The translations under genes and the position numbers were made by a program. Positions 1,612 through 39,035 of a stretch of DNA of 64,000 nt are shown in pieces. The DNA lies in contig JBIQKJ010000004.1 in the NCBI GenBank assembly GCA_044506615.1, forward strand, positions 134,383 to 198,382, written 5' to 3'. The number at the start of each line of letters is the position of its first letter. Position 1 is the first letter of the stretch. The DNA comes from Chloroflexota bacterium. GTDB lineage: Bacteria > Chloroflexota > Limnocylindria > Limnocylindrales > CSP1-4. A model generated the notes under the pieces. It was not told the origin of the DNA, did not search any database, and saw only the letters and a program-made list of their open reading frames with translations.

Positions 1612-1620
1612 GTCCTGGCC

Positions 1621-2697: not shown

Positions 2698-2701
2698 CGG
2701 G

Positions 2702-3220: not shown

Positions 3221-3353
3221 CGGTTCCTCCTCGGTCGTGTGCACACTCGGACGTTCAAGGGAGACAATACCAGAGAAAATGTAGCCATCATCATCCACCG
3301 ACCGCTATGATGGCAGCCGGCCCCGACCACCGTACCGCCGATCGAGGACGCCC

Positions 3354-9004: not shown

Positions 9005-9459
9005 CCCGGCGACTCCGCCTCGAGGTTCGTCCGGAGGCAGCGGGTGACCTGGCCGATCATGACCCCGGCGGTGGCGCGGAGGACCATCTCGCCGAGGATC
9101 GCAATCCGCCCGTGGACCTTGAGGTTCGCGTCGTAGTCGAGGCGGGTCGACCGTGCCCCGCCGGCCGCGAGCGTCACGAGGACATCCGCCTCCAGCCGGC
9201 TCTTCGTTACCGAGTCCGTCCCCTCGACGCGGACGGTCAGGCGCTCGGCCGGCACCTGGTCCGTCAGGACCGCCGTGAACGTGAACTGGCCCTCGATCGG
9301 GCCGACCGACGCCGTCACGGCCCCCTCGAACGTCCGGTCGTCGACCTTCCGGACGCCCTCGACCCCCGGGATGCACGAGGCGAGACTCGTGGGATCCACG
9401 ACGACCGCCCACACGGCCGCTGCCGGCGCGGCGATCTCGATCTGATCGCGGAACTTCAT
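9001..9459 (-). CDS. CoxG / SRPBCC-family protein (carbon monoxide dehydrogenase subunit G-like)
   Basis: 152 aa, MKFRDQIEIAAPAAAVWAVVVDPTSLASCIPGVE..., the typical CoxG N-terminus. Translationally coupled to the GMC oxidoreductase. Confidence 0.75.
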   Translation of the reverse strand: MKFRDQIEIAAPAAAVWAVVVDPTSLASCIPGVEGVRKVDDRTFEGAVTASVGPIEGQFTFTAVLTDQVPAERLTVRVEGTDSVTKSRLEADVLVTLAAGGARSTRLDYDANLKVHGRIAILGEMVLRATAGVMIGQVTRCLRTNLEAESPG

Positions 9460-9624
9460 CGGTTTGTGTACAAGAGGCGCTTCAGTGGATACATCTTACT
9501 CACTGTAGCGCGGGTCGCACCCGGCCGCACGTCTCCTGAGGGACGGCGCGCTGTCCCGTGATATGCATACAATCCGGTTCATGTTGGACACCATTCGGGC
9601 CGCGTCCGTGCGAGGAGCGACCTC

Positions 9625-12077: not shown

Positions 12078-13261
12078 GCGCCGGCTTCCGGCGGGAGCCG
12101 GCCGTCGATCTCGAGGCCGTCGGCGAGGACGAGGGGCTCGCCGCGCGCATCCGCGCCGAGATCGACCGGGGCGGGCCCATGACCTTCGCGCGCTTCATGG
12201 AGCTCGCGCTGTACGACCCTGACGGCGGCTACTACCGAGCCGAGGCGTCGCGGCCCGGCCGCGCGGGGGACTTCCTCACGGCCCCCGAGACCCACCCGAT
12301 CTTCGGTGCCGTGCTCGCCGGTCAGCTGGCCGAGGCCTGGGACGTCCTCGGGCGTCCGGATCCGTTCGCGATCCGCGAGCACGGGGCCGGAGCCGGGGCG
12401 CTCGCGGAATCCGTGCTCCGCACGCTCGCCGCGGAAGCGCCCCCGGTGCTGGCGGCCGTTCGCTACGAGCCCGTCGAGGTCGATCCCCGGCGCATCGCGC
12501 AGCTCACCGATCGCCTGACCGCCGCCGGGCTGGAGCGGCACCTGGCCCAGCCGCAGGAGGAGCCGGTCACCGGCGTCGTGCTCGGCAACGAGGTCCTCGA
12601 TGCGCTGCCCGTCCACCGCGTCGGGGTCCGGGAAGGTCGGCTGCTCGAGCGCTACGTCGGGGTCGAGGGGACGGCGTTCGTCGACGTGTGGGGCGAGCCG
12701 TCGTCACCGGCGCTCGCGACCCGGCTGGCCGCTGAAGGCGTCTCGCTCGCCGAGGGCCAGTCGGCGGAGATCGGCCTCGCGCTGGACCCATGGGTGGCGG
12801 AGGCCGCCGGCGGCCTGGGCCGGGGACTCATGCTGCTCGTCGATTACGGCGCCCCGGCCGGCGAGCTGTACGACCCGGCCCGCCGGCCGCACGGGACGCT
12901 CCGCGCCTACCTTCGACACCGGGTGCACGACGATGTCTACCGCCACGTCGGCCGGCAGGACCTCACCGCACACGTGGACCTGACGGCGCTCGACGAGGCG
13001 GCGCGAGCCGCGGGTCTCGAGCCGGTCGGCGCGACGACGCAGGCCGAGTTCCTGGTCGGGGGCGGTCTCGAGCGACGACTCCAGGCGGTTCGCGACGACC
13101 CCGCGACGTCGCTTCGCGACTACGTCGAGCTTCGCTCCGCGGTCATGCGGCTCATCGACCCGGCCGCGACCGGCGGGTTCCGCGTGCTGGCCTACGGTCG
13201 CGGCTGGCCGGCGGGCGTCGCGCTGTCGGGGTTCGCCTTCCGCGGGCCGAGACGGCGCTGA
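12068..13261 (+). CDS. SAM-dependent methyltransferase, DUF185 / MidA / NDUFAF7 family
   Basis: 397 aa from MELSAGFRREP. The segments PMTFARFMELALYDPDGGYY...GDFLTAPE..PIFG...EHGAGAG...GNEVLDALPVH...YGR are characteristic of the COG1565/NDUFAF7 family. Confidence 0.75.
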   Translation: MELSAGFRREPAVDLEAVGEDEGLAARIRAEIDRGGPMTFARFMELALYDPDGGYYRAEASRPGRAGDFLTAPETHPIFGAVLAGQLAEAWDVLGRPDPFAIREHGAGAGALAESVLRTLAAEAPPVLAAVRYEPVEVDPRRIAQLTDRLTAAGLERHLAQPQEEPVTGVVLGNEVLDALPVHRVGVREGRLLERYVGVEGTAFVDVWGEPSSPALATRLAAEGVSLAEGQSAEIGLALDPWVAEAAGGLGRGLMLLVDYGAPAGELYDPARRPHGTLRAYLRHRVHDDVYRHVGRQDLTAHVDLTALDEAARAAGLEPVGATTQAEFLVGGGLERRLQAVRDDPATSLRDYVELRSAVMRLIDPAATGGFRVLAYGRGWPAGVALSGFAFRGPRRR

Positions 13262-13595: not shown

Positions 13596-13970
13596 GTGCC
13601 CACAGGAGTTCGGTTGGAAGCGATCTGGTACATCCTGGGCTTCGCCTTCGCCGGCGTGTCCTTCGTGTTCCTCACGATCGGCGCGGCGTGGCTCGTGTCC
13701 CACCGGACGCGCGGTGACGAGCACAAGGGCCTTCCCTACGAGTCCGGCATCGACACCTACGGCGACACCCACGGACGCTTCGGTCTCTCCTTCTACATCT
13801 ACGCGCTGCTCTTCGTCGCGTTCGACATCGAGGTGGTCTTCCTGTTCGTCTGGGCCCTCACGTTCGACGACCTGCTGCTCGGCGGGTTCATCAGCATGGC
13901 GATCTTCGTGATCGTGCTGCTCGTCGGCCTCGCCTACGCCGTCCGGAAGGGGGCGCTGACGTGGCATTGA
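13596..13970 (+). CDS. nuoA: NADH-quinone oxidoreductase subunit A
   Basis: Three TM segments plus the conserved PYESGI...F...FY..ALLFV.FD.E..FL motif. An alternative TTG start at 13614 has AGGAG 5 nt upstream. Confidence 0.9.
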
Positions 13971-14668
13971 ATCCGGACGGCGCGCCCGAGACCGCGGGCG
14001 GCATCGTCGTGGCCGAGCCGGCCGACCTGACCGAGCCGCTCATCGTCCCCAACACCCTCTGGCAGTCGCCCCACCCGAACGCGTACGCCAACGCGCTGGG
14101 CCCGGCCAACGACCACCTGCGCGAGCTCGAGGAACACGGGGTCGGGCGGCGCGACGACGCCCGCTGGGGCGGCCCGCTCGAGGTCATCCCCACCAAGGCC
14201 GACTACGTCCTCGACCTGATCCGGATGAACTCGCTCTGGCCGCTGCTGTCGGGCCTAGCCTGCTGCGCGATCGAGATGATGTCGTCCGCGACGTCGAAGA
14301 ACGACATCGACCGCTTCGGCCACTTCCCGTTCCGCGCCTCGCCCCGCCAGGCGGACGTGCTGATCGTCGCGGGCACGCTGACGACCAAGATGGCCGGCCC
14401 GCTCATCCGGCTCTGGGAGCAGATGCCCGAGCCGAAATGGTGCGTGGCGATGGGCGACTGCACGTGCTCGGGCGGTCGCTACAAGCGGAGCTACTCGACG
14501 ATCGAGGGCATCGACCGGGTCATGCCGGTCGACGTCTACGTCCCCGGCTGCCCGCCCCGTCCGGAAGGGCTGATCTTCGCGATGATGAAGCTCCAGCAGC
14601 TCGTCAAGCAGCGCCGCGGCCACTGGCCCGAGCGGATGATCGGGCCGAACGTCCCGGAGGGCGTCTGA
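13961..14668 (+). CDS. nuoB: NADH-quinone oxidoreductase subunit B (N2 cluster)
   Basis: [17 protein letters not shown] and VPGCPPRPE cysteine motifs, with an approximately 60-aa N-terminal extension. GTG overlaps the nuoA stop by 10 nt. Confidence 0.9.
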
Positions 14669-14670
14669 CC

Positions 14671-15240
14671 GTGGATCGCCGCTTCAAGGCGCGCCTGGAG
14701 GCGCGCTTCGGTGACCAGTTGCTCGGACCGGTCCGGCAGCGCCACGATCAGACCGAGATCCGGATCGGGCCCGGCGACGTCGTGCCCGTCCTGACGACGC
14801 TCCATGACGACCCCGAGCTCCGGTTCGAGTTCCTCGCCGACCTGTGCGGCGTCGACACGGGCGACGCGATGCAGGCCGTCTACCACCTCTGGAGCGACGT
14901 GACGCCCGACTGGCTCCGCGTCATCGTCGACGGGCTGTCCCGCGAGGACCCGCGCGTGCCCTCGCTGACCTTCCTGTGGAAGGGCGCCGAGTGGATGGAG
15001 CGCGAGGCGTACGACATGTTCGGGATCATCTTCGAGGGCAACCGCGACCTGCGGCGCATCTACATGCCGCCCGACTACTCGAGCTTCCCCCTCCGCAAGG
15101 ACTTCTACCTCGCCGACGACGCGGCCCGCTCCCCGGGCGCCGGCATCCGACACATGGAGCAGACCCATCTCCCGGTGAACACGCCGTCGGCGGCGATCCG
15201 CCGCACGCCGGCCGCTCGCCAGCTGCCGCCAAGCCGATGA
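14671..15240 (+). CDS. nuoC: NADH-quinone oxidoreductase subunit C
   Basis: 189 aa from GTG at 14671. Conserved WKGAEWMEREAYDMFGIIFEGN..LRRI segment. Confidence 0.85.
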   Translation: MDRRFKARLEARFGDQLLGPVRQRHDQTEIRIGPGDVVPVLTTLHDDPELRFEFLADLCGVDTGDAMQAVYHLWSDVTPDWLRVIVDGLSREDPRVPSLTFLWKGAEWMEREAYDMFGIIFEGNRDLRRIYMPPDYSSFPLRKDFYLADDAARSPGAGIRHMEQTHLPVNTPSAAIRRTPAARQLPPSR

Positions 15241-16457
15241 CGACGACGACCCCGCGTCCTTCCGCCGACGACCCCCGCGTCCTGCTCGAGCAGGAGGTCG
15301 GGGTGTTCGAGCCGGTCCCGCCGTACCCGCCCCGCACCGAGCGGGAGGCCGAGTTCTACACGCTCGGCGACGGCCAGATGTTCATCAACATGGGTCCGCA
15401 GCACCCGTCGACCCACGGCGTGCTCCGGGTCGTGCTGAAGATCGAGGGCGAGAACGTCGTCGACCTCGACCCCGTGCTCGGCTACCTCCACCGGGGCGTC
15501 GAGAAGCTGTGCGAGAACTCGGACTACCACCAGGTCATCAGCCAGGTCGACCCGCTCGAGTACGTCAGCGCCCTGTTCAACGAGTGGGGCGCCGTCGCCT
15601 CGTTCGAGAAGCTGCTCGACGTCCAGGTCCCGCGCCGCGCCGAGTACATCCGCGTCCTGTCGTCCGAGCTCAACCGGGTCGCGAGCCACGCCCTGTTCAT
15701 GGGCTGGATGGCGCTCGACCTCGGCGGGCTGACGCCGATCCTGTGGTCGTTCATCGAGCGCGACGAGATCGTCGAGATGCTCGCGTCGCTCACCGGCCAG
15801 CGGATGCTCTTCAACTACTTCCGGATCGGCGGCGTCAACGGCGATCTCAACCACGACTTCATGAGCAGGCTCGGGGACTGGATGAGCCGGGCGACCGAGC
15901 AGATCGAGGCCAACGCCGGGCTGCTCAACGAGAACGAGATCTTCGTCCGTCGCATGCGGGGTCTCGGCACGATCGACACGAAGACCGCGCTCCGCATGTG
16001 CTTCACCGGACCGAACCTGCGGGCGACCGGTGTGCCGTTCGACGTCCGCCGGGCACACCCGTACTCGGTCTACCCCGAGCTCGACTTCGACATCCCCACT
16101 CGGAGCGAAGGCGACTGCCTCGCGCGCTACCTGCTGCGCGTCGACGAGATCAAGCAGAGCCTCCGGATCATCGACCAGTGCCTCCACGAGATGCCCGACG
16201 GGCCGATCATGGCCAAGCTCCCGCGCCTGCTGCGCCCGCGCCCGGGCCGCGCCTACAGCGCCGTCGAGTCGCCGCGCGGCCAGTACGCGACGTACGTCGT
16301 CTCGGACGGCACCGACCAGCCGTACCGCATGCGCATCCACGACCCGTCGTTCATCCACCTGCAGTCGGTCGGGCTGCTCATGGAGGGGCAGCTGATCGCC
16401 GACACCATGGCGATCATGGCGAGCCTCGATCCCATCATGGGCGGGGTCGACAAGTGA
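15237..16457 (+). CDS. nuoD: NADH-quinone oxidoreductase subunit D
   Basis: 406 aa with an ATGA overlap to nuoC. NMGPQHPSTHGVLRVVL, GYLHRGVEKL and the C-terminal DPIMGGVDK. Confidence 0.9.
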   Translation: MTTTTPRPSADDPRVLLEQEVGVFEPVPPYPPRTEREAEFYTLGDGQMFINMGPQHPSTHGVLRVVLKIEGENVVDLDPVLGYLHRGVEKLCENSDYHQVISQVDPLEYVSALFNEWGAVASFEKLLDVQVPRRAEYIRVLSSELNRVASHALFMGWMALDLGGLTPILWSFIERDEIVEMLASLTGQRMLFNYFRIGGVNGDLNHDFMSRLGDWMSRATEQIEANAGLLNENEIFVRRMRGLGTIDTKTALRMCFTGPNLRATGVPFDVRRAHPYSVYPELDFDIPTRSEGDCLARYLLRVDEIKQSLRIIDQCLHEMPDGPIMAKLPRLLRPRPGRAYSAVESPRGQYATYVVSDGTDQPYRMRIHDPSFIHLQSVGLLMEGQLIADTMAIMASLDPIMGGVDK

Positions 16458-16632: not shown

Positions 16633-18003
16633 ATGACGGTCATCGGGCGCTCCTGGAACCGGCTGACGCTGCCCGGGAAGATCGTCTTCACGGCCGTTCC
16701 GATCCTGCTCGCGCTGACGGTCGGGCTCATCGCCGCGGTCGCGATCCTCGGCGGACCGGCGCTCGACCTGCTCGCCGCGAACCTGCCGATCGTCCGGTTC
16801 GTCGTGGCCGCGACGGTCATCCTGCTGATGACCGTGCCGACGGCGTTCCTGATCATCTACATGGAGATGAAGATCATCGCGCTGATGAACCTCCGGATCG
16901 GCCCGGACCGGGTCGGCCCGTGGGGCTCGCTGCTGTCGGTGGTCCACGGCCTCAAGGTCCTCATGAAGGAGGACTTCACGCCGACCGGCGCGGACGCGCT
17001 CGTCTTCACCTGGGCGCCGGTCGTGGTGTACCTGACGAGCGTGATGACGCTGCTCGTGATCCCCTTCGGACCCGGGCTGGTCGGACAGCACTTCGACCTC
17101 GGCCTGCTGTACTTCTTCGCGATCAGCGGCCTGTCGGTCGTGGGCCTGCTGATGGGCGGCTGGGCGAGCTTCAACAAGTACTCGCTGCTCGGCGGCCTGC
17201 GCTCGGCCGCCCAGGTCGTGAGCTACGAGATCCCGCTCGTGCTGTCGGTCGTCGGCATCATCATGATCGCCGGGACGATGGACCTCGACGTGATCGTCCG
17301 CAACCAGGCCGGCTGGTTCACCGACTGGTACATCTGGCAGCAGCCGCTCGGCGCACTGATCTTCTTCATTGCCGCGACCGCCGAGGCGAACCGCACGCCG
17401 TTCGACCTCACGGAGGCCGACTCGGAGATCGTGGCCGGCTTCGCCACCGAGTACTCCGGCATGCGCTTCGGCTTCTTCTTCTTCGCCGAGTACGTCAACG
17501 TCTTCATCATCTCGGCGCTCACGGTCACGCTCTTCTTCGGCGGCTGGAACGCGCCGTTCGCGTGGCCGGAGGCCTGGGCGATCAACCTGTCGCTCGATCC
17601 GGGCTCGCTCGGGATCGGCCTGCTGCTGCTCGTCCTCGTGGCGCCCGTCGTCCTGACCCTGATCTTCGCGATCCCGTTCTGGCTGGCCAGCTCGCGGGTG
17701 AAGGGTTGGCAGGCGCTGGTCGCGGGGTTCGTGCTCGCCAACCTGTTCATCGTCGGCGCGATCATCGGCGCCGGCTGGATCGGGTTCGAGTGGGTCGCCG
17801 GGGTCGTCTGGTTTATGCTCAAGACGTACCTGTTCGTGTTCACGTTCGTCTGGATGCGCGGAACCCTGCCCCGGGTGCGCATCGATCAGCTGATGAACTT
17901 CGCCTGGAAGTGGTTGATGGAGCTGGCGTTCCTCAACATCTTCATCACGGCGGCCGCGATCATCGTCATCAAGACCCTGAACCCCGAGGCACTGCCGCGA
18001 TGA
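16633..18003 (+). CDS. nuoH: NADH-quinone oxidoreductase subunit H
   Basis: 456 aa, multi-TM. Conserved MEMKIIALMNLRIGPDRVGPWG, LMKED, EANRTPFDL.EADSEIVAGF.TEYSGMRF and MRGTLPRVRIDQLM. Confidence 0.9.
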   Translation: MTVIGRSWNRLTLPGKIVFTAVPILLALTVGLIAAVAILGGPALDLLAANLPIVRFVVAATVILLMTVPTAFLIIYMEMKIIALMNLRIGPDRVGPWGSLLSVVHGLKVLMKEDFTPTGADALVFTWAPVVVYLTSVMTLLVIPFGPGLVGQHFDLGLLYFFAISGLSVVGLLMGGWASFNKYSLLGGLRSAAQVVSYEIPLVLSVVGIIMIAGTMDLDVIVRNQAGWFTDWYIWQQPLGALIFFIAATAEANRTPFDLTEADSEIVAGFATEYSGMRFGFFFFAEYVNVFIISALTVTLFFGGWNAPFAWPEAWAINLSLDPGSLGIGLLLLVLVAPVVLTLIFAIPFWLASSRVKGWQALVAGFVLANLFIVGAIIGAGWIGFEWVAGVVWFMLKTYLFVFTFVWMRGTLPRVRIDQLMNFAWKWLMELAFLNIFITAAAIIVIKTLNPEALPR

Positions 18004-18680
18004 GCTTCATCCCCGGGCTCGGGATCGTGAAGGGAATGGGTGTCACCCTTCGCCGGTTCTTCGAGCCCAAGGCCACGATCAAGTACCCCGAGGAGCGGGC
18101 CGACGTCGCGCCGCGCTTCCGCGGCCGCCTCCAGCTGCTCTACGACGAGTGGGGCACGCTCAAGTGCGAGACCTGCTTCCAGTGTGCGCAGGCCTGCCCC
18201 ATCGAGTGCATCGACATGGGCGGGATCGACACCCGCGGTCGCTACCACGTCCATTGGGGCCCGCCCGAGACGTACGACGAGCGGCGCGAGGAGTCCGCGC
18301 TGCGCCGGTCGGGGCGACCCGTGCCCGATCCGAAGTTCACCCACTTCCAGCCCGTCGACCTGGCGGCGGTCGACGCGGTCCTCGAGGACTACGACCACGA
18401 TCCGAAGGCGCTCCTCCCGATCCTCGAGGGCGTCCAGGCCGCCTACGGCTACCTCCCGGTCGCGGCGATCAAGCGGATCAGCCAGAAGACCGGCGCCTGG
18501 TACGCCTACATCTACGGGACCGCGTCCTACTACAAGCACCTCCGGTTCGAGCCGGCGATGGACGAGACCCAGGCGGCGGCGATGGACGCGCTGCGGCCGA
18601 ACGAGGCGTCCTACCTGGCCGCATTCGACGCCGCGCTGCGGACCGGCGGCGCGGGCTCCGGCTCGCAGGCTCGAGCGTAA
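18000..18680 (+). CDS. chimeric subunit: N-terminal half of NuoI (one 4Fe-4S motif) fused to a NuoE-like N-terminal helical domain that has no cysteines
   Basis: 226 aa with an ATGA overlap to nuoH. Residues about 1-75 (IKYPEERADVAPRFRGRLQL...KCETCFQCAQACPIEC) match the NuoI N-half. Residues about 110-170 (DPKALLPILEGVQAAYGYLPVAAIKRISQKTGAWYAYIYGTASYYKHLRFEP) match the NuoE N-terminal domain. There are no further Cys residues. Confidence 0.75.
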   Translation: MSFIPGLGIVKGMGVTLRRFFEPKATIKYPEERADVAPRFRGRLQLLYDEWGTLKCETCFQCAQACPIECIDMGGIDTRGRYHVHWGPPETYDERREESALRRSGRPVPDPKFTHFQPVDLAAVDAVLEDYDHDPKALLPILEGVQAAYGYLPVAAIKRISQKTGAWYAYIYGTASYYKHLRFEPAMDETQAAAMDALRPNEASYLAAFDAALRTGGAGSGSQARA

Positions 18681-18685
18681 CCGGG

Positions 18686-20008
18686 ATGCAGCGGCTCTCG
18701 ACGCCGGCCGATTGGCCGACGATCCTCCTCGCTCGCGCCGACGCCCCCGATCCGACCGATCTCGACGCCGCGGCCCGCGCCGGCGCGTTCGAGGGGCTGC
18801 GCATCGCCGTGCGCGACCTCGGGCCGACCGGCGTGATCGCGACCGTCGGGGCGTCCGGGCTCCGCGGGCGCGGCGGTGCCGGGTTCCCGGCCGCCGACAA
18901 GTGGCGTGCCGCGACCGCGGTCGAGGCGCCGCGCCGCTACGTCGTCGCCAACGGCTACGAGGCCGATCCCGCCGCATTCACCGACCGCACCCTGCTCGCC
19001 CGCGACCCGTTCGCTGTCGTGGAGGGGACGCTCATCGCCGCCTACGCCGTCGGTGCGGCCGAGGCATTCATCGCGGTTCGTGCCGGCGAGACCGAGATCG
19101 TGCGCGGCCTCGAGGCCGCGATCGCGGCGGCGGAGGAGGCCGGCTTCGCCGGACCCGACGTCCTCGGCTCCGGCCACGACATCGATGTCCACGTCCGCCC
19201 GGTGCAGGGCGCCTACATGCTCGGCGAGGAGACCGTCCTGCTCAAGGCGCTCGAGGGCCGACGCGGCCAGCCCGAGCAGCGCCCGCCGTACCCGGCCACG
19301 CGCGGCCTCTTCGACATGCCGACGGTCGTCCAGAACGTCCAGACCCTCGCGCTCGTCCCGTGGATCGTGCGCCACGGCGCACCCGCGTTCGCCGGGATCG
19401 GCGCACCCGGGAGCCCGGGCACGGCCCTCGTCCAGGTCCGGACCGGGGCCGGCGAGGGCATCGCGGAGGTTCCGCTCGGGACGCCGCTGCGCGACCTGCT
19501 CGGGCTCGCCGGGCCGCTCCCCACGAGCCCCGCGCTCAAGGCGATGCTGATCGGCGGCCCGTCGGGCGGCCTGCTCCCGGCGGACCTGCTCGACACGCCG
19601 TACGACTTCCGCGCGCTGCGCGACGCCGGGGCCCATGTCGGCTCGGGATCGATCGTGGTCGCCGACGAGCGCGCCTGCGTTGTCGACCTGGCCCGGCTGC
19701 TGACCCGCTTCTGCTCGAACGAAGCCTGTGGCAAGAGCATCCCGTGCCGCATCGGCACCCGCCGCCTGGTCGAGATCGCCGACCGGATGGCCGAGGGGAC
19801 GCCCCGCCGGAACGACCTGACGACCCTGGCCGACCTGTCCGCCGACATCGTCGGCTCGGGCCTGTGCGACCACGAGCGCCTGACGACGCTCCCGCTCGAG
19901 AGCGGGATGCGATACTTCAGGTCCGAGCTCGACGATCACCTCCTCCGCAGCTCCTGTCCTGCCGGCGTCTGTCACCCGATCGCGGTGACGGCCGGTGCGG
20001 CCCACTAG
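18686..20008 (+). CDS. nuoF: NADH-quinone oxidoreductase subunit F-like (FMN/NADH-binding)
   Basis: 440 aa. GLRGRGGAGFPAADKW, ANGYEADP, GAYMLGEETVLLKALEG, and an N3-region EACGKSIPCRIG...GLCDHE in which the second Cys of the canonical CxxCxxC is Ser. Confidence 0.85.
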   Translation: MQRLSTPADWPTILLARADAPDPTDLDAAARAGAFEGLRIAVRDLGPTGVIATVGASGLRGRGGAGFPAADKWRAATAVEAPRRYVVANGYEADPAAFTDRTLLARDPFAVVEGTLIAAYAVGAAEAFIAVRAGETEIVRGLEAAIAAAEEAGFAGPDVLGSGHDIDVHVRPVQGAYMLGEETVLLKALEGRRGQPEQRPPYPATRGLFDMPTVVQNVQTLALVPWIVRHGAPAFAGIGAPGSPGTALVQVRTGAGEGIAEVPLGTPLRDLLGLAGPLPTSPALKAMLIGGPSGGLLPADLLDTPYDFRALRDAGAHVGSGSIVVADERACVVDLARLLTRFCSNEACGKSIPCRIGTRRLVEIADRMAEGTPRRNDLTTLADLSADIVGSGLCDHERLTTLPLESGMRYFRSELDDHLLRSSCPAGVCHPIAVTAGAAH

Positions 20009-20016
20009 CGAGACCC

Positions 20017-22662
20017 ATGGCCGACCTGATCACGCGCCCCGAGACCACAGCACCAGAGCGAACCCCCGCCGCCACGCCGGAGGCACTGGCCGAGCGCCTG
20101 CTCGAGACGCAGTCGCCGCAGCGACCGCAATCGACGCCGCGGATCCGGATCGAGGTCGACGGCCGGGTCATCGAGGGCTCCGAGGGCCAGACGATCCTCG
20201 AGGTCTGCCGCGACAACGGGATCGAGATCCCGACCCTGTGCTACGAGCCGAAGCTCGAGGGCTTCGGGGCGTGCCGGATGTGCGTCGTCGACGTCGAGGG
20301 CGAGGAGCACCCGCCGATCAGCTGCTCGCGCACCGCCGAGGGCGGCATGAAGGTCCAGACCCAGACCGAGGAGATCCGTCGGATGCGGCGGACGAACCTC
20401 GAGCTGATCTTCAGCGACCACAACGCCTACTGCCTGCCGCCCTGCCAGAACAAGTGCCCGAGCCACATCGACATCCCGGGCTTCCTCAAGGCGAACGCCG
20501 AGGCGGACTGGCGCGAGGGCGCCCGGATCTTCAAGCGGACGATCCCCTTCCCGTCGATCCTCGGCCGCGTCTGCCCGGCACCGTGCGAGGAGCACTGCCG
20601 CCGCGACGAGGTCGACGAGGCGATCGCGATCCGGGACAGCCACCGCTACCACGGCGACCAGGTCCTGCGCCAGATGCTCGACGAGGGCATCGATCCGCCG
20701 ATCCCGTTCGAGCGCAAGCCCGCGACCGGCCGCAAGGCGGCGGTCATCGGGTCCGGCCCGGCCGGAATGAGCGCCGCCTACTACCTGCTGCTCAACGGCC
20801 ACGACGTGACGGTCTTCGAGCGCGACCCGGCGCCCGGCGGCATGCTCCGCTACGGCATCCCGCAGTACCGGCTGCCGAAGGTCGAGGTGCTCGAGGCGGA
20901 GTACGAGTCGGTCACCCGGCTCGGCGGCAAGATCGTCTGCAACGCCGAGCTCGGCAAGGACTACACGCTCGACGACCTGACGAACCAGGGCTTCGGCGCG
21001 GTGGTCGTCGCGATCGGCTGCTACGACACGAACAAGCTCGGGATCCCGGGCGAGGACGCGGCCGAGGTGCTCGACGGCCTGGAGTACCTGCGGACCGCCA
21101 CGCTCGGCCTTCCCTACCCGGATCACGTCGGCAAGCGGGTGGTCGTCATCGGCGGCGGGTTCACGTCGATGGACTGCGTCCGCACGTCGGTCCGCCAGGG
21201 CGCGACCGAGGTCACGCTCGTCTACCGGCGTGACATGAAGGACATGCCCGCCGCCAACGAGGTCCACGAGGCCATCGAGGAGGGCGTGACCGCCATCTTC
21301 CAGGCCGGGCCTGTCCGGGTCATCACCGACGACGCCGGCACGGTGACCGGGGTCGAGTTCATCCGCATGCGCCTCGGCGAGCCGGACGCCTCCGGCCGTC
21401 GCCGCCCGGAGCCCGCTCCCGGGACCGAGTTCACGATCCCGTGCGACCGCGTGCTCCTCGCGATCGGGCAGGGCCCCGACCTGTCGTGGGTGGGACCCGG
21501 CTCGGAGGGCGTCACTGCGACCCGCAACCGCCGCCTCCAGGCCGACGCGGTCACGTTCGAGACCGGCCGCCCCGGTGTCTTCGGGACCGGCGACGTGCGG
21601 GTCGGAGCGGCGACGGTCGTCCAGGCGATCGCCGAGGGCCGCCGTGCGGCGTACGCGGTCGACGCCTACCTGCGCGGACAGGACCTCGCCGCGATCCGGA
21701 CGCGCCAGACGCTGGCCGAGCCGCAGCCCGAGTTCCTCTCGATCGTCCCGTTCACGAGCGAGGTCAAGGAGCCGCGCTACCGGCTCACCTCGATGGACGC
21801 CGACGTCCGGAACAAGAGCTACGTCGAGTACGAGCTGCCGTACACGCGCGAGGAGGCGGTCGCCGAGTCGACCCGCTGCCTCCAGTGCACGTGCGAGGCG
21901 ATCGGGTTCTGCGATCTCCGACGGCTCGGCATCGAGTACGGGACGACGCTCCAGACGCTCGAGCCGCAGTACCACGACGGCGCCGGCTATCGGAGCGTGA
22001 CCGAGAACCGGTTCACCGGCGTCAACCACGACTACATCCGCGACGACAGCCACGCGTTCATCCTGCGCGAGCCGTCGCGCTGCATCGACTGCGGCCGCTG
22101 CGCGAACGTCTGCGCCGAGGTCGTCGGCGCCGCCTGCTACGACTTCATGCGGATCGGCTTCGACACGCTCGTGACGACCCCGCTCGACATGAGCCTCAAC
22201 GACACGCCGTGCGTGTCCTGCGGCCGGTGCGCGGAGACCTGTCCGACCGGCGCGCTCATGCCGAAGCCGCGCGTGCTCCAGAAGTACGAGGTCGACGAGA
22301 GCCGCTGCATCCTGTGCGGGATCTGCGTCGATGCGTGCCCCTACGACGCGCTCCGCGACGGCGCCGACATCGAGCTCGCGAGCACCAGCCGCGAGCAGCC
22401 GATGATCGACCTCATCGCGCTCTCGGCGATCAACCGCGAGACCGAGGTCACGTACATCCGCCGTGAGGCCGACTGGGCGACGCGCGCCGCCGCCGAGGGC
22501 CGGCTCATCGACGCGGGCCGGATGCTGCCGGTCCTGCCGGCGGGCGTGACCGGCGTCGCGACCGGCAACGGGCACGGCGGCAACGGGCACGGCGGCAACG
22601 GGCACGGCGGCAACGGGCACGGCCACGCCGGGGGTGGCTCGGCCCACGCCCACCAGAAGTAG
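20017..22662 (+). CDS. chimeric subunit: NuoG-type [2Fe-2S]/His-Cys3 N-terminus, GltD-like FAD/NAD(P)H oxidoreductase, NuoG-type 4Fe-4S motifs, C-terminal half of NuoI, and a (GNGHG)4 His-rich tail
   Basis: 881 aa. Motifs in order: [17 protein letters not shown]...ISC; [15 protein letters not shown]; [13 protein letters not shown]; [48 protein letters not shown] and [13 protein letters not shown] (two Rossmann sites, GltD-like); [11 protein letters not shown] and [16 protein letters not shown]; [24 protein letters not shown]...DIELAS (NuoI second motif). No molybdopterin-like C-terminal NuoG domain. Confidence 0.75.
22564..22623 (+). repeat. perfect 15-bp tandem repeat x4 (GGCAACGGGCACGGC) encoding (GNGHG)4 at the C-terminus of the NuoG/GltD chimera
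   Basis: Four identical head-to-tail copies read directly from the sequence, in frame, followed by [12 protein letters not shown]-stop. Confidence 0.95.
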
Positions 22663-22673
22663 CGGCGCTCGAC

Positions 22674-23264
22674 GTGCGGACGCTGATCCCGATCCTCATC
22701 GCCCTCGCGATCCTCGGCGCCGTCACCGGCGTCGCGGTGCTGATGCTGGTCCTGCTCGGGCAGGACTGGCCCGACGTCCTGCTGTGGCTGTTCGCCGCGG
22801 TGATGCTCGGGTCGGCGCTGCTGGTCGTGACGATGCGCGACATCATCCGCTGCGGCCTGGCGATGATCGTGTCGTTCGGCGCGCTCGCCGGGATCTACGC
22901 GCTGCTCGGCGCGCCGCTCCTCGCGGCCACCCAGGTCATCGTCTACATCGGCGCGATCAGCGTGCTGATCCTGTTCGCGATCATGCTCACGCAGACGAAG
23001 GATGCGCCCCGCGTGCTCGTGTTCCAGACCCAGGTCGCGGGCGCGGCCGTGGCGTCGATCCTCGTGGCGGTCATCATCGCGCTCGCCGTGACCGCCACCG
23101 ACTGGCCCACCGCGGCCATCGGGGAGTGGCTCGAGACGTCGGTGCTGTCGAGCGTGCTCTTCAACGAGAACCTGCTGCCGTTCGAGGTCGTCGGCGTGCT
23201 GCTGCTCGCGGCCGTGGTCGGCGGCGTCTTCATTGCGAAGCGCGAGCCGGGAGGGCCGGCGTGA
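22674..23264 (+). CDS. nuoJ: NADH-quinone oxidoreductase subunit J
   Basis: 196 aa, 5 TM segments. [22 protein letters not shown] and the position between the G-like gene and nuoK. Confidence 0.85.
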
Positions 23265-23587
23265 GCCAGTCGCTCGACACGTACCTCGTGCTGTCCGGCG
23301 TGCTGTTCGCGATCGGCACGTTCGGCTTCCTCGCCCGCCGGAACGCGATCAGCATGCTCATGTCGATCGAGCTCATGCTCAACGCGGTCAACCTCGCGAT
23401 CGTTGCGTTCGCGGCGTTCGGGGCGTTCGGCGGCAGCGACGCTGACATCGCCCGTGGTTCGGTGATCGCGCTGATGGTCATCGCGGTCGCCGCGGCGGAG
23501 GCGACCGTCGGGCTCGCGATCGTCATCGCCATCTACCGCAACCGCCGGACGCCGCTGGTCGACGAATACGACGCGATGAGCCAATGA
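23261..23587 (+). CDS. nuoK: NADH-quinone oxidoreductase subunit K
   Basis: 108 aa with a GTGA overlap. [35 protein letters not shown]...[12 protein letters not shown]. Confidence 0.9.
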
Positions 23588-25596
23588 CCGACCTGCCCTG
23601 GGGGACCTTGATCCCGCTCATCCTCGGGCTGCCGATCGCGGGCTTCGCGATCACCGCAGCGATCGGGCGTCGGCTGGGCAAGGCCGCGCACTGGATCCCC
23701 GTCCTCGCGGTCGTCGGCGCGTGGGTCATCTCGATGCTCGCGGCCTACGCGGTGCTGACCGGCGCGGCGCCGGTGCTCGAGGGGACCGACGAGGCGCACG
23801 GCTTCGCGGTCCACCTGTTCGAGTGGATCCCGGCCGGCACGTTCTCGGTCGACGTCGGCTTCCTCGTGGACTCCTTGACCGCCTGCCTGCTGATCGTCGT
23901 CACGACGATCGGCCTGCTGGTCCACATCTACTCGATCGGGTACATGGGCCACGACCCGGGGTACTGGCGCTTCTTCGCCTACCTCAACCTGTTCATGTTC
24001 TCGATGCTGCTGCTGGTCCTCGCGGACAGCTGGCTCGTGGTGTTCGTGGCCTGGGAGCTCGTCGGCCTCTCGAGCTACCTGCTCATCGGCTTCTGGTACC
24101 GCAAGAACTCGGCCGCCCTGGCGAGCAAGAAGGCCTTCCTCGTCAACCGCGTCGGTGACGTCGGGTTCGCGCTGGGGATCATGGCGATCTTCGCGAACAC
24201 GCTCGCCATGGGCGACCCGACCCTCGACATCCGCCACTCGATCGAGCTGCTGACCGCAGAGGGCGCCGAGCTGCTCGTGCCGCTCCCGATCGTCGCGCTG
24301 CTGCTGTTCGCCGGCGCGATGGGCAAGAGCGCGCAGTTCCCGCTCCACGTGTGGCTGCCCGACGCCATGGAGGGCCCGACCCCGGTGTCGGCGCTCATCC
24401 ACGCCGCGACGATGGTCAACGCCGGCGTCTACCTCGTCGCCCGTGCCAACTACCTGTTCGCCCATTCGGCCGAGGCGATGGTGATCGTGGCCTCGATCGG
24501 CATCTTCACCGCGATCCTCGCGGCGTCGATCGCGTTCACCCAGACCGACATCAAGCGCGTGCTCGCCTACTCGACGCTGAGCCAGCTCGGCTACATGTTC
24601 GCGGCGCTCGGTGTCGGCGCCTTCACCGCGGCGATCTTCCACCTCATGACCCACGGCTTCTTCAAGGGGCTGCTGTTCCTCGGCTCGGGCTCGGTGATCC
24701 ATGCCGTCCACGAGGAGCAGGACATGCGCCGGATGGGTGGGCTCCGCCGGAAGATCCCGATCACCTACTGGACGATGCTGATCGGCTCGGTGGCGATCGC
24801 CGGCATCCCGCCGCTCGCGGGGTTCTTCTCGAAGGACGAGATCCTCGGCGAGGCCTTCAAGCTCGGGTTCCAATGGGTCTGGGCGATCGGGATCATCGTC
24901 GCGATCATGACCGCGTTCTACATGTTCCGGCTCGTCGGCCTGACGTTCTGGGGCGACTTCCGCGGCCCGCGCGAGGTGTGGGACCGGATCCACGAGTCGC
25001 CCGCCGTGATGACCGTGCCGCTGATCCTGCTCGCGATCCCGTCGGCATTCATCGGGCTCGCGCTCGGGCTGCCGCTCGGCGACAGCGTCATCCACCACTG
25101 GCTGGCACCGATCTTCGACGAGGGTGTGCACCACATCGAGGAGCTGCGCGGGGTCGAGGTCCCCGTCTACAACCTGCTCGGGATCGACGGCTTCCTGATC
25201 GGCGCCAGCGTGGCCGTTGCCGTCGCGGGCATCCTGGCGGCGTGGCGCTTCTTCGGCGTCGAGCTCGACGGGCTTCGCCGGCGCGGCAACCCGGAGGCGG
25301 TTCGCGCCTGGACCGCGCGCCTGCCGTTCCTCTATCGCGGATCCCTCAACAAGTGGTGGTTCGATGACCTCAACCACCTGCTGTTCATCGTGATCGGCGG
25401 CCGCGTGGCGGCCTTCCTGTGGTGGTTCGACCGGGTCGTCGTCGACGGCACCGTGAACGGGGTCGGCAACCTCACGGTGGGTGCCGGCCGCGGGCTCCGT
25501 CACGTCCAGACCGGGCGCGTCCAGAACTACGCGCTCGGCATCGCGTTCGGGCTGATCGTCATGGCCGGCTCGTACCTCATCCTGGCAGGCCGATGA
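23584..25596 (+). CDS. nuoL: NADH-quinone oxidoreductase subunit L
   Basis: 670 aa antiporter-like subunit. [47 protein letters not shown], and a C-terminal lateral-helix region. Confidence 0.9.
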
Positions 25597-27248
25597 CCAT
25601 CGACGTCGCCTCGATCCCGATCCTCTCGATCGTCACGTTCCTGCCGCTGGTCGGGGCAGTCGTGCTGGCGCTCCTGCCGGCGAGCGCGGCGCGGCCGGTG
25701 GCGCTCGTCACGGCGCTCTTGACGTGGGCCGTCTCGCTGATCCTGCTCGTCGGCTACGCCCCGACCTCGCCGGGCTTCCAGTTCGAGGAGGAGATCGGCT
25801 GGATCCCGCTGTTCGGGATCGAGTACAAGCTCGGGATGGACGGCCTGTCGGCCGCGCTCGTCGTGCTGACGACGACGCTGACGTGGATCTCGATCCTCGC
25901 CAGCTGGCACCCGATCCAGCACCGGATCAAGGAGTACATGGTCTCGTTCCTCGTGCTCGAGGTCGGGATGATCGGCGTGTTCCTCGCGGCCGACCTGTTC
26001 CTGTTCTACATCTTCTGGGAGGTCGTCCTCGTCCCGATGTACCTGATCATCGGGATCTGGGGCGGCGCCAACCGGATCTACGCGACGATCAAGTTCGTCC
26101 TCTACACGCTCGTCGGGTCGCTGCTGATGCTCGTCGCGATCCTCGCGACCGCGTTCACCTACCAGTCGACGACCGGGTCGTGGGAGAACGCCTTCGACTT
26201 CGAGACGCTGCGCGCGTTCGCGCTGACCGGCGGCGGCTTCCCGCCGGAGCTCCAGATCGGCGCCTTCCTCGCGTTCTTCCTCGCGTTCGCGATCAAGGTC
26301 CCGATGTTCCCGTTCCACACCTGGCTGCCCGACGCGCACACCGAGGCGCCGACGGCCGGCTCGGTGATCCTGGCGGGGGTGATGCTCAAGCTCGGCGGGT
26401 ACGGCCTGCTGCGCTTCGCGCTCCCGCTCTACCCGGACGCGGCGCACACGTTCGCGCCGGTGATCATCGTGCTGTCGCTGATCGGGATCATCTACGGGGC
26501 GATCGTGGCGCTCGTCCAGCCCGACCTGAAGAAGCTCGTCGCGTACTCGTCGGTCAGCCACATGGCGTTCGTGACGCTCGGGATCTTCGTGTTCACGGAG
26601 CAGGGCATCCAGGGCGCGGTGCTCCAGATGATCAACCACGGCCTGATCACCGGCGGCCTGTTCCTCATGGTCGGCGTGATCTACGAGCGGACCCACGACC
26701 GAACGATCGCGAAGATGGGCGGGCTCGCGGCGCGCGTCCCCGTCTGGGTGGCGGTCTTCGGGTTCTTCTGCTTCGCCTCGGCCGGGCTGCCGGGCCTGTC
26801 CGGCTTCGTCGGCGAGTTCCTCACGCTCGTCGGCGCGTTCGTGGCCAACCCGTGGATCGCGGTCGTGGCCGCGTTCGTCATGGTCCTCGCCGCCGCCTAC
26901 CTGCTGTGGATGTTCCAGCGGATCGCGTTCGGCGAGGTCTCGGCCTTCCTCCAGGGTCTCGGCCACCACCTCACCGACATGACGCCGACCGAGATCCTGA
27001 CGCTCGCCCCGCTCGCCGCACTGGTGGTCGCGTTCGGCATCTTCCCGGGCCTCGTCCTCGACCTGTTCCCCGGCGCAGTGGCCGATACGCTCGAAAGCGC
27101 CGAGGCGGGCAGCGCGATCGCCGTGCCGACCGAGCTCGTGCTCGGGCTGATCGGGCTGCTCGTCGCCGGGATCCTTGCCCGCATCGTGTACGTGGCCCTC
27201 CTCGAGCGGTCGCCGTCGCTCGAGCCCGACGCGGGAGCCGCCCGATGA
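25593..27248 (+). CDS. nuoM: NADH-quinone oxidoreductase subunit M
   Basis: 551 aa with an ATGA overlap. FYIFWEVVLVPMYLIIGIWGG, KVPMFPFHTWLPDAHTEAPTAGSVILAGVMLKLGGYG. Confidence 0.9.
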   Translation: MTIDVASIPILSIVTFLPLVGAVVLALLPASAARPVALVTALLTWAVSLILLVGYAPTSPGFQFEEEIGWIPLFGIEYKLGMDGLSAALVVLTTTLTWISILASWHPIQHRIKEYMVSFLVLEVGMIGVFLAADLFLFYIFWEVVLVPMYLIIGIWGGANRIYATIKFVLYTLVGSLLMLVAILATAFTYQSTTGSWENAFDFETLRAFALTGGGFPPELQIGAFLAFFLAFAIKVPMFPFHTWLPDAHTEAPTAGSVILAGVMLKLGGYGLLRFALPLYPDAAHTFAPVIIVLSLIGIIYGAIVALVQPDLKKLVAYSSVSHMAFVTLGIFVFTEQGIQGAVLQMINHGLITGGLFLMVGVIYERTHDRTIAKMGGLAARVPVWVAVFGFFCFASAGLPGLSGFVGEFLTLVGAFVANPWIAVVAAFVMVLAAAYLLWMFQRIAFGEVSAFLQGLGHHLTDMTPTEILTLAPLAALVVAFGIFPGLVLDLFPGAVADTLESAEAGSAIAVPTELVLGLIGLLVAGILARIVYVALLERSPSLEPDAGAAR

Positions 27249-28732
27249 CCGCCGACGACCTCGTCACGACGGCGCCGTTCATCGCGGCGGTGCTGACCGC
27301 GATCGCGGTCCTCGTCGTCGACCTCGCGGTACCGAACCGCACGAAGCTCGCCGTTGCGACGTCGATGGTGGGTCTCGCGATCGCCGCCGCGCTCGTCGTG
27401 CTCATCGGCGTCGACCGGCCCCCGGCGTTCGGAGGCGCCTACGTCGCCGACGCGTTGACCGCGTTCCTCCAGCTCCTGCTGATCGCGATCGTCGCGATGA
27501 GCATCCTGTTCGGGCCCGACTACCTGCGCCCGCGCAACCTGCCGGTCGCCGAGTTCGCGACGGTCCTCATCTTCGCGCTGACCGGCGCGATGCTGATCTC
27601 GGCGTCGGGCGACCTCCTGATCCTGTTCATCGCGCTCGAGCTGATGGTGCTGCCGGGCTACCTGCTCGCGGGCTACCACAAGACCGACGCCTACTCGACC
27701 GAGGGCGCGATCAAGTACTTCCTGCTCGGCTCGTTCAGCTCTGCGATCTTCCTGTTCGGGCTCGCGTTCGTGTGGGGCATGACCGGGACGACGAGCATCG
27801 CCGGCGTCGCCGAGCGCCTCCAGGAGATTGTCGCGGGGACCGCGCTCCTCCAGCCCGGCCTGGCGCTCGGCCTCGCGCTGATGACGACCGGCGTGGCCTT
27901 CAAGATCGCGGCGGTCCCGTTCCACTACTGGACCCCGGACGCCTACCAGGGCTCGCCGACCCCCGTCACGGCGTACCTGTCGACCGGCCCGAAGATCGGC
28001 GGCTTCGCGCTGATCCTGCGCCTGTTCGTCGACGGGCTGTGGCCGCTCGCCGACTGGTGGCTGCCCGTCGTCATCGTCCTCGCCGCGATCACGATGACGC
28101 TCGGCAACCTCGTTGCGCTGACCCAGGACAACGTCAAGCGGATGCTCGCCTACAGCTCGATCGCCCACACCGGGTACATGCTCGTCGGGCTCGCGGCGTT
28201 CGGGGCCGGGCGGCTCAGCGGCCTCGAGGGGCTGCTGTTCTACGGAGCGGCGTACGCGTTCATGAACCTCGGCGCGTTCGCGGTCGTCGCGGCGCTCCAG
28301 AAGCGGGCCGGCGTCACCTCGCAGCTGACCACCTTCGCCGGTCTCGGGCGGCGCGAGCCGGTGCTCGGCGCGATCATGCTGCTGTTCCTGCTGTCGCTGA
28401 CCGGGATCCCGCCGCTGGCCGGCTTCTGGGCCAAGGTCTACATCATCATCGCCGCGGTCGAGGAGGGCGGCTGGCTGACGTTCCTCGCGGTGCTGACCGT
28501 GCTCAACGCCGCCGCGGCCGCCTTCTACTACCTGCGGGTCGCCGTGTACATGTACATGCGGGACCCGGCGAGCGAGGCGCCGGCCCAGCGCCACGGCTGG
28601 CTGCTGTGGGGCGGCCTCGCGGCCGCGACCGCGTTGACGATCCTGTTCGGCGTCCTGCCGAACTCCCTCCTCGACGCGGTGAAGGTCGCCGTCGAGAACC
28701 TGTCGAGCGTCGGCGCCCAGGCGCTCCGCTAG
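27245..28732 (+). CDS. nuoN: NADH-quinone oxidoreductase subunit N
   Basis: 495 aa with an ATGA overlap. ELMVLPGYLLAGY, FKIAAVPFHYWTPDAYQGSPTPVTAYLS. Confidence 0.9.
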   Translation: MTADDLVTTAPFIAAVLTAIAVLVVDLAVPNRTKLAVATSMVGLAIAAALVVLIGVDRPPAFGGAYVADALTAFLQLLLIAIVAMSILFGPDYLRPRNLPVAEFATVLIFALTGAMLISASGDLLILFIALELMVLPGYLLAGYHKTDAYSTEGAIKYFLLGSFSSAIFLFGLAFVWGMTGTTSIAGVAERLQEIVAGTALLQPGLALGLALMTTGVAFKIAAVPFHYWTPDAYQGSPTPVTAYLSTGPKIGGFALILRLFVDGLWPLADWWLPVVIVLAAITMTLGNLVALTQDNVKRMLAYSSIAHTGYMLVGLAAFGAGRLSGLEGLLFYGAAYAFMNLGAFAVVAALQKRAGVTSQLTTFAGLGRREPVLGAIMLLFLLSLTGIPPLAGFWAKVYIIIAAVEEGGWLTFLAVLTVLNAAAAAFYYLRVAVYMYMRDPASEAPAQRHGWLLWGGLAAATALTILFGVLPNSLLDAVKVAVENLSSVGAQALR

Positions 28733-39016: not shown

Positions 39017-39035
39017 CAGGAGCGACGGAGAGCAC

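Follow-up and report, generated by a model that had tools for sequence, protein, structure and literature searches.

A complex I operon of an uncultured Chloroflexota bacterium with a predicted Stn/NfnABC-type input module inside a split nuoI gene

In the canonical 14-subunit complex I (NuoA-N/Nqo1-14; T. thermophilus 4HEA, E. coli, M. smegmatis 8E9G), the genes for NuoE, NuoF and NuoG stand between nuoD and nuoH, and NuoI is one polypeptide. This work concerns a complex I operon in a 64-kb stretch of DNA from a Chloroflexota bacterium (assembly GCA_044506615.1, contig JBIQKJ010000004.1, positions 134,383 to 198,382 of the forward strand; hereafter the window), in which the E/F/G-like genes lie inside nuoI and the two halves of NuoI are carried by different proteins, here called p1 and p3. 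The membrane and quinone-module subunits are alike in the two systems, and the eight cluster cysteines of NuoI are kept with their NuoI-specific flanks, as are a NuoF-like flavin mononucleotide (FMN) subunit and NuoG-type [2Fe-2S] and [4Fe-4S] domains. In contrast to the canonical enzyme, the operon of the window lacks the NuoE [2Fe-2S] cluster (N1a) and the molybdopterin-like C-terminal domain of NuoG, and has in addition a GltD domain for flavin adenine dinucleotide (FAD) and NADPH with two further clusters.

Eleven-subunit complex I-like enzymes (cyanobacterial/chloroplast NDH-1, Fpo and those of many anaerobes; PMC3144371) share with the operon of the window the backbone ABCD-HIJKLMN, with no EFG between D and H, and a lineage-specific input module. 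Nonetheless, their NuoI/NdhI/FpoI is intact and their donor (ferredoxin, FpoF) is separate, whereas here the donor is fused to both NuoI halves. The 'Nuo-Bfu' complex I that Schut et al. (2022, PMC9304861) predicted for Geobacter, Planctomycetes and Nitrospirae also has a Bfu-type NADH-oxidising module (N-module), but its genes stand in the usual order, its NuoI is intact, its bifurcating BfuBC core is complete and it has no GltD domain. A split NuoI is not mentioned in that paper, nor in the surveys of complex I diversity PMC3144371, PMC4453560 and PMC4758237. No description of a split NuoI or of a GltD-bearing complex I turned up in the full-text literature, and given that most subscription journals lie outside it, this absence is not proof. 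As far as that search reached, the complex I with a split NuoI, which is widespread, is undescribed.

The inserted genes most resemble those of StnABC/NfnABC (8OH5, 9BOV, 9N5U; PMC10482914, PMC11829005, PMC12018979), which have the same gene order (E-like, F-like, G/GltD-like) and the GltD insertion at the same site, between the [2Fe-2S] domain and the NuoG-like clusters. These enzymes are soluble and hold a bifurcation core (the BfuC [2Fe-2S] cluster and the BfuB N- and C-terminal domains), which is absent here. Their C-terminal FdhF-like domain, complete in StnC and in the 9bov protein and partial in archaeal NfnA, is replaced here by one half of NuoI, and the E-like protein differs from theirs in carrying the other half. 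StnC's FdhF-like domain (residues 683-1172) is inactive, and its branching clusters have been termed a non-functional remnant (PMC10482914). The published minimal bifurcation site comprises FMN, the B1 cluster and the BfuC (C1) [2Fe-2S] cluster (PMC11829005), and non-bifurcating homologues lack the extra BfuB clusters B2-B5 (PMC9304861).

The window contains a 13-gene respiratory complex I operon, nuoABCD-H-[p1]-[p2]-[p3]-JKLMN. With a probability that we put at roughly three in four, this operon has an input module of Stn/Nfn-Bfu type inside a split nuoI, the halves of which would rebuild NuoI in an enzyme with dual NADH/NADPH input and no bifurcation. The three inserted genes and the two segments of NuoI, in nucleotides (nt) of the window and with protein lengths in amino acids (aa), are as follows.

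18000..18680, plus strand: p1 (226 aa), NuoI N-terminal half and NuoE-like N-terminal domain, matched by NuoI models and 2Fe-2S_thioredx.
18024..18245, plus strand: NuoI N-terminal half, p1 aa 9-82, matched by NuoI models, with the orphan motif C56, C59, C62, C66-P67.
18686..20008, plus strand: p2 (440 aa), NuoF/BfuB-like flavoprotein core, matched by Pfam Complex1_51K and NADH_4Fe-4S.
20017..22662, plus strand: p3 (881 aa), StnC/NfnA-like protein and NuoI C-terminal half, with matches to 9bov_A and 8oh5_C and Pfam domains.
22270..22455, plus strand: NuoI C-terminal half, p3 aa 752-813, matched by TIGR01971 and a custom profile, with the orphan motif C764, C767, C770, C774-P775.

An earlier, sequence-only reading of this stretch had described p1 as the start of a NuoI with a single cluster motif and had placed the missing second motif near the C-terminus of p3. 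Its coordinates, lengths and peptides were exact on re-check (226 aa and 881 aa; motifs at nt 18165 and nt 22306), and profile search found the two segments at complementary positions of NuoI. With TIGR01971 (NCBIfam NuoI, 121 positions), p1 residues 12-75 fall on profile positions 1-63 and p3 residues 752-798 on profile positions 71-117, with scores of 53.6 and 47.5 bits that are both below the cut-off of 113.05. Eleven more NuoI models (NF00453x-NF00454x) match p1, in each case with N-terminal parts only. The comparison with whole NuoI that the same reading had proposed also bore it out, given that the concatenate of p1(1-88) and p3(745-815) gave a single colinear alignment with whole NDUFS8/NuoI chains of solved complex I (E-values of 1.2e-22 for 7ar7_I, 3.8e-22 for Paracoccus 8qby_I and 7e-18 for Thermus Nqo9), the sole difference being a junction loop that is 9 residues longer.

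A custom NuoI hidden Markov model (HMM), built from 62 canonical two-motif NuoI sequences in the fetched loci, gave 71.6 bits for p1 (positions 17-82) and 44.9 bits for p3(745-830) (positions 91-153). The concatenate scored 116.3 bits as one domain (17-152), which means that the scores of the halves are additive. When each p3 motif was taken in turn as the partner of p1 in this HMM, motif 3 added 44.7 bits, motif 2 added 15 and motif 1 added 0.4. By these complementary positions and additive scores, NuoI is broken in the loop between its two cluster motifs, with eight profile positions missing, and the third motif of p3 is the specific partner of the p1 motif. The arrangement lies well outside what chance would give. 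All checks made out of those that the earlier reading had proposed favoured it, so that its observation is confirmed and its interpretation is supported, with the refinements set out below.

The p1 orphan motif (C56-C66, from nt 18165) is the only CxxCxxCxxxCP of p1, and the p3 orphan motif (C764-C774, nt 22306), the cysteines of which are invariant, is the last of three in p3. Beyond these four, no real coding frame of the 64-kb window contains such a motif, and therefore no intact nuoI, with both motifs in a single open reading frame (ORF), was found in the window by the motif scan. One extra pattern match, on the minus strand at 39018, crosses a stop codon and belongs to Cys/Arg-rich off-frame sequence. 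No single polypeptide of this operon holds a two-motif NuoI for clusters N6a/N6b.

What lies between the two halves had been read as N-module material of E, F and G type. The E-, F- and G/GltD-like content was recovered, with the refinement that the cassette is not a generic NuoEFG, its PDB matches being of Stn/NfnABC type. The best solved relatives of p1, p2 and p3 are, in this order, 9bov chains C, B and A, 8oh5 chains A, B and C (StnA, StnB and StnC of Sporomusa ovata) and NfnC, NfnB and NfnA of 9n5u. By these similarities, the cassette is of Stn/NfnABC (Nfn-Bfu) type and not a canonical NuoEFG. A canonical NuoEFG origin was rejected because p2 and p3 score higher with Stn/Nfn chains than with complex I chains, and a canonical NuoE origin of the E-like domain of p1 was rejected because the Stn/Nfn E-like subunits match it better than complex I NuoE. 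The layout of an Nfn-type BfuA ([2Fe-2S], GltD FAD/NADPH insertion and NuoG-like clusters) is found in p3. The bifurcating BfuBC core (FMN, B1, BfuC [2Fe-2S] and extra BfuB domains) is not found in p1/p2, although it is found in L083, L085 and L088-L091 among the full-core relatives described below. The earlier reading can thus be refined in that the cassette of the Limnocylindria lineage is reduced, without the NuoE 2Fe-2S domain and without the extra NuoF cluster domains. The domains of p1 and p3 outside the NuoI halves are as follows.

18351..18557, plus strand: NuoE/StnA-like N-terminal helical domain, p1 aa 118-186, matching 9bov_C 19-88 and 8oh5_A 16-85.
20140..20367, plus strand: N-terminal [2Fe-2S] domain of p3 (N1b/A1-like), residues 42-117, Pfam Fer2_4, E 5.5e-20.
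20431..21681, plus strand: GltD/NfnB-like insertion of p3, Fer4_20 (two [4Fe-4S]) and FAD/NADPH-binding domains, Pfam Fer4_20 139-217 and Pyr_redox_2 240-541.
21877..22257, plus strand: NuoG-like cluster region of p3, C621/624/626/632 and 2x[4Fe-4S] ferredoxin domain (C689, C732), aligned to StnC/9bov_A and Nqo3 117-288.
22564..22659, plus strand: His/Gly/Asn-rich low-complexity tail of p3, [11 protein letters not shown]...HAHQK.

In p1, PF01257 (2Fe-2S_thioredx) aligns residues 125-186 on profile positions 2-63 of 145 only. The thioredoxin-like [2Fe-2S] domain of NuoE (N1a) is not present, and p1 has no cysteines beyond residue 70. In known enzymes the N-terminal helical domain of NuoE/StnA binds NuoF. 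Directly past the p1 cluster motif stands a fifth cysteine, Cys70 (18207-18209, plus strand; 'CPIEC'), which is invariant in 81 Limnocylindria-type sequences; more distant relatives and canonical NuoI have Ala or Val there.

The Pfam matches of p2 correspond to an FMN/NADH site and an N3-like cluster, and its best PDB matches are 9bov_B (residues 108-526 of 584), HydB and StnB. The N- and C-terminal cluster domains of bifurcating BfuB are absent. The motifs GRGGAGFP and GEETVLL and the cysteines C343/C348/C354/C394 are kept, the FMN/NADH motifs being more than 90% conserved; C348/C354/C394 are invariant and C343 is present in 68 of the 71 sequences. With TIGR01959 (NuoF), p2 scores 350.7 bits against a cut-off of 558.65, and it is thus not a NuoF equivalog.

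The match of p3 to 9bov_A (E 2.6e-162) places p3 residues 43-774 on 9bov_A 4-699, and that to 8oh5_C (StnC; E 3.1e-148) covers StnC residues 3-701 of 1172. The end of the GltD/NfnB-like insertion was set at about residue 555 by matches to the GltD family (TIGR01317 140-555, PRK12778 141-553), and its FAD/NADPH motifs, [14 protein letters not shown] and YRR, show conservation above 90%. In the NuoG-like region, where the cluster C621/624/626/632 has the pattern CxxCxCx5C, every cysteine is invariant in 59 sequences. The FdhF-like domain is missing, and the NuoI C-terminal half stands in its place about 20 residues past the ferredoxin domain. Past the last ferredoxin-type motif of p3 remain about 130 residues, which are the NuoI C-terminal half and the His-rich tail, and no molybdopterin-oxidoreductase-like C-terminal domain was found among the best 25 Pfam or NCBIfam matches. 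The NuoG model TIGR01973 gives p3 97 bits against 470, over the N-terminal ~100 residues only. The cassette falls short of the equivalog cut-off of each canonical N-module subunit, NuoE as well as NuoF and NuoG. The tail varies in sequence, with its His/Gly/Asn-rich character kept in all relatives inspected; metal binding or a part in assembly are possible roles for it.

In databases, p1 goes under the names 'NAD(P)H-dependent oxidoreductase subunit E', 'ferredoxin' or 'hypothetical', while p3 is entered as 'FAD-dependent oxidoreductase' or 'formate dehydrogenase major subunit'. Under these current pipeline names, metabolic reconstructions therefore report a complex I without NuoI, NuoE and NuoG.

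A species scan that started from a 4-sequence p1 alignment and took one genome per species found relatives of p1 in at least 514 species-level genomes. The taxon labels among the matches listed are mostly Chloroflexia/Chloroflexota, many of them Candidatus Limnocylindrales/Limnocylindria, with a few Thermomicrobiales or Anaerolineaceae and three non-Chloroflexota names. Three loci with the typical Limnocylindria-type operon and a p1 that is 71-77% identical (L043, L057 and L080) come from metagenome-assembled genomes (MAGs) labelled Patescibacteria, Sulfomarinibacteraceae and Polarisedimenticolia; these odd labels are probably due to mis-binning.

The sequence-only reading had called for an intact nuoI to be sought as counter-evidence and for the gene order of relatives to be surveyed. 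No intact nuoI was found within ±10 kb of the 82 related loci, as in the window itself. A canonical NuoI query matched the related loci in two separate pieces, residues 29-87 in p1 and 76-170 in p3, and never in an intact gene, while the same pipeline found both halves in one ORF in the canonical control operons L102 and L160. Among the 80 fetched loci, the order D-H-p1-p2-p3-J-L, with the N- and C-terminal parts of p3 contiguous, is the same in all contigs that are long enough, with two exceptions. In L014 the segment that matches the NuoI C-terminal half comes immediately past p2, on the opposite strand (12324-12593), and in L035 p2 is not followed by p3 and a 35%-identical p3-like match lies upstream (7841-9487); these two may be rearrangements or misassemblies. 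Of the 32 cysteines in p3, all but one are invariant or close to it, as are all five in p1 and the N3 set in p2. No protein of the operon is better conserved than p3, with 82-90% identity versus 59-78% for NuoJ.

More distant p1-like proteins, with 31-50% identity, carry the same NuoI N-terminal half before a complete NuoE with its [2Fe-2S] cysteines. In the full-core loci, namely L083 (from a Thermoleophilia-labelled MAG) and, from metagenome contigs, L085 and L087-L091, the order is nuoABCDH, NuoI N-half with full NuoE, full BfuB with both extra domains, [2Fe-2S] with GltD, ferredoxin domain and NuoI C-half, and nuoJKLMN. In another variant, L084 (49% G+C; 1321-6023), the F-like subunit (1048 aa) carries the GltD domain as a C-terminal fusion, and a 265-aa protein resembling the N-terminal part of NuoG comprises the [2Fe-2S] domain, the His-ligated cluster motif, the ferredoxin domain and the NuoI C-half. 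The junction at which NuoI is split is identical in the full-core and L084 variants.

The cassette had been read as foreign and as inserted in-frame into nuoI. The position inside nuoI was recovered, while the event is ancient and not one of this genome, because the arrangement is common to at least 514 species-level genomes and to divergent relatives with fuller cassettes. The G+C content is about 72% throughout the window, that of the cassette being equal to its surroundings, and a recent horizontal insertion was rejected on account of this uniform composition and the clade-wide arrangement. The simplest reading would be a single old insertion of an E-F-G-ordered Bfu operon into the loop of nuoI, with later loss of the bifurcation parts in the Limnocylindria lineage.

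In the sequence, NuoEFG is replaced by a three-protein module that descends from a Stn/NfnABC-type NADPH/NADH oxidoreductase and sits inside nuoI. In the mechanism that we propose, the NuoI halves of p1 and p3 would join into a single 2x[4Fe-4S] ferredoxin fold. A fold of this kind holds each cluster by three cysteines of one motif and a fourth from the other, so that N6a and N6b would both bridge p1 and p3, and the input module would be covalently tied to the quinone module through the ferredoxin shared by these two proteins. The E-like helical domain of p1 would tether p2. NADH would be oxidised at the FMN of p2 and its electrons passed to the N3-like cluster, and NADPH would be oxidised in p3, where the GltD domain has its FAD, and its electrons passed to the two [4Fe-4S] clusters of this domain, the two routes meeting in the NuoG-like cluster chain of p3. 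The exit for electrons would be the ferredoxin domain immediately ahead of the NuoI half, which corresponds to the branch that dead-ends at the inactive FdhF-like domain in StnC, and they would then reach N6a/N6b, N2 in NuoB and the quinone, with proton pumping by NuoH and NuoJ-N. Given that the NuoE/BfuC [2Fe-2S] and the extra BfuB domains are absent, no bifurcation is expected and the enzyme would be a plain NAD(P)H:quinone oxidoreductase, in which internal NADPH-NAD transhydrogenation is possible. The full-core relatives may couple ferredoxin too.

Several points weigh against this proposal. In canonical complex I it is the His-ligated N5, and not a cluster of the ferredoxin domain, that donates to the NuoI clusters. 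The N3-type motif of p2 (residues 343-354; 19712-19747, plus strand) reads C-x4-C-G-K-(T/S)-x-P-C versus CGKCxxC, the canonical second N3 cysteine being never present in the p2 family, where it is Thr/Ser and where the upstream Cys343 is conserved. Near the flavin, this family has 'NGY(G/E)ADPA' versus 'NADEGDPG' in its relatives. In view of these departures at the N3 cysteine and the flavin site, the activity of p2 is not certain. AlphaFold2 gave unusable models both for the chimera of the NuoI halves without an alignment (predicted local distance difference test, pLDDT, 32.8) and for p3 with 41 homologues that are 83-89% identical (pLDDT 35.2). Moreover, the carriers are all uncultured MAGs, and the direction of operation and the physiological substrates are read from motifs only.

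Because complex I is reversible, the same architecture could work mainly in the opposite direction, with the proton-motive force driving electrons from quinol to NADP+ (and NAD+) for a supply of biosynthetic NADPH. A dedicated NADPH site on a pumping complex would be energetically sensible for the reduction of NADP+, and the GltD/NfnB-type site is bidirectional in Nfn/Stn (PMC10482914). However, the sequence holds no directional sign, the operon context has no link to lithotrophy and the forward direction is the default for complex I in heterotrophs, and we consider a mainly reverse operation unlikely.

The rebuilding of NuoI from p1 and p3 would be unnecessary if p3 were self-contained, its motif 3 pairing with motif 2, and if the p1 motif were vestigial or bound a cluster of its own. 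Pfam Fer4_7 and Fer4_9 do align p3 residues 732-778 as one dicluster domain, and ferredoxin motifs are interchangeable at the level of sequence, as is seen in the gain of 15 bits that p1 still makes with motif 2. Nonetheless, motifs 1 and 2 are already a complete pair, homologous to the ferredoxin domain of NuoG/HydA/StnC, and motif 3 is flanked by NuoI-specific sequence, which extends over profile positions 91-153 and takes in the C-terminal helix. The four cysteines of the p1 motif are invariant in 81 sequences, and with no rebuilt NuoI there would be no route to N2, yet the other subunits are all conserved. This makes a self-contained p3 quite improbable.

More improbable still is an independent soluble Stn-like transhydrogenase encoded inside the operon, with the NuoI pieces as relics and an intact NuoI encoded elsewhere in the genome. 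Many bacteria have more than one nuo cluster, and StnABC itself is soluble (PMC10482914). Relics, however, would decay, whereas the N-terminal membrane-proximal segment of NuoI and both motifs are strongly conserved over hundreds of species and in divergent lineages, with an identical split position in all variants. The StnC domain that is required for assembly of the Stn tetramer (PMC10482914) is also absent, as are the bifurcation parts required for Stn chemistry.

An artefact of misassembly, which the earlier reading had named as possible counter-evidence, or of frameshift is ruled out for practical purposes. The high-GC MAG data do contain many frameshifted gene calls (e.g. P0145, P0150, P0166; those in the 50%-identity representative library were set aside by eye), but the identical p1 protein is found on independent contigs from two further sequencing runs, and the same frames and gene order recur in related loci that are long enough, in more than 60 independent genomes/metagenomes.

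A broader proposal, which we regard as evenly poised, is that the split-NuoI operons represent an unrecognised and widespread class of complex I, in which an 11-subunit-type enzyme independently gained an N-module by insertion of a Stn/Nfn-Bfu operon into nuoI. Such an enzyme would pump protons and have its NADH and NADPH sites hard-wired through a two-polypeptide ferredoxin, and its fuller relatives would be membrane complexes that couple NADH, NADPH, ferredoxin and quinone by bifurcation/confurcation. If true, this would be a second, independent route of complex I to an N-module, in which fusion of genes to a split core subunit provided the docking, and it would bear on the long-debated modular evolution of complex I. 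It would also predict a proton-pumping complex I that oxidises NADPH (or reduces NADP+), by which the NADPH pool and the membrane potential would be directly linked in an abundant uncultured class of soil and freshwater, and would give a function to the branch of Stn clusters termed a 'non-functional remnant'.

The remainder of the operon had been read as ABCD-H and JKLMN, and this order holds, with Pfam matches for every subunit. Subunits A, B, C, D, H, J, K, L, M and N are encoded together, each with a Pfam score above the gathering score, in the following genes.

13596..13970, plus strand: nuoA, Pfam Oxidored_q4, E 4.6e-30.
13961..14668, plus strand: nuoB (N2 cluster subunit), Pfam Oxidored_q6, E 2.3e-26, with the tandem CC motif, '[10 protein letters not shown]' in translation.
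14671..15240, plus strand: nuoC, Pfam Complex1_30kDa, E 1.3e-37.
15237..16457, plus strand: nuoD, Pfam Complex1_49kDa, E 2.9e-88.
16633..18003, plus strand: nuoH (456 aa, longer than usual), Pfam NADHdh, E 1.4e-105.
22674..23264, plus strand: nuoJ, Pfam Oxidored_q3, E 1.2e-31.
23261..23587, plus strand: nuoK, Pfam Oxidored_q2, E 1.1e-25.
23584..25596, plus strand: nuoL, Pfam Proton_antipo_N and Proton_antipo_M.
25593..27248, plus strand: nuoM, Pfam Proton_antipo_M.
27245..28732, plus strand: nuoN, Pfam Proton_antipo_M.

The Pfam match of NuoH stops at residue 366 of its 456 aa, versus a length of 372 aa in L083, and in NuoB (13961-14668) about 100 residues precede the Pfam domain. The long NuoH and the NuoB extension may be extra contact surfaces for the new module.

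Directly upstream of nuoA lies a gene for a methyltransferase of the MidA/NDUFAF7 family (12068-13261, plus strand; Pfam Methyltransf_28, E 4.5e-54), and a MidA-like gene is the same-strand neighbour of nuoA in 56 of 66 related loci. In mitochondria, MidA/NDUFAF7 acts as an assembly factor for complex I, methylating an arginine in NDUFS2/NuoD. The NuoD of the window carries an HGVLR motif. The MidA-like gene is preceded by a 360-aa ORF (10995-12077, plus strand) with no Pfam match, which is kept at the same position in most related loci with 49-73% identity; its product may be another factor tied to the complex.

Further upstream, between 7475 and 10335, are genes for a GMC-family FAD oxidoreductase (minus strand), a CoxG-like protein (minus strand) and an isochorismatase-family hydrolase. 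A gene downstream of nuoN, at 28854-30497, is GT20 trehalose-6-phosphate synthase-like.

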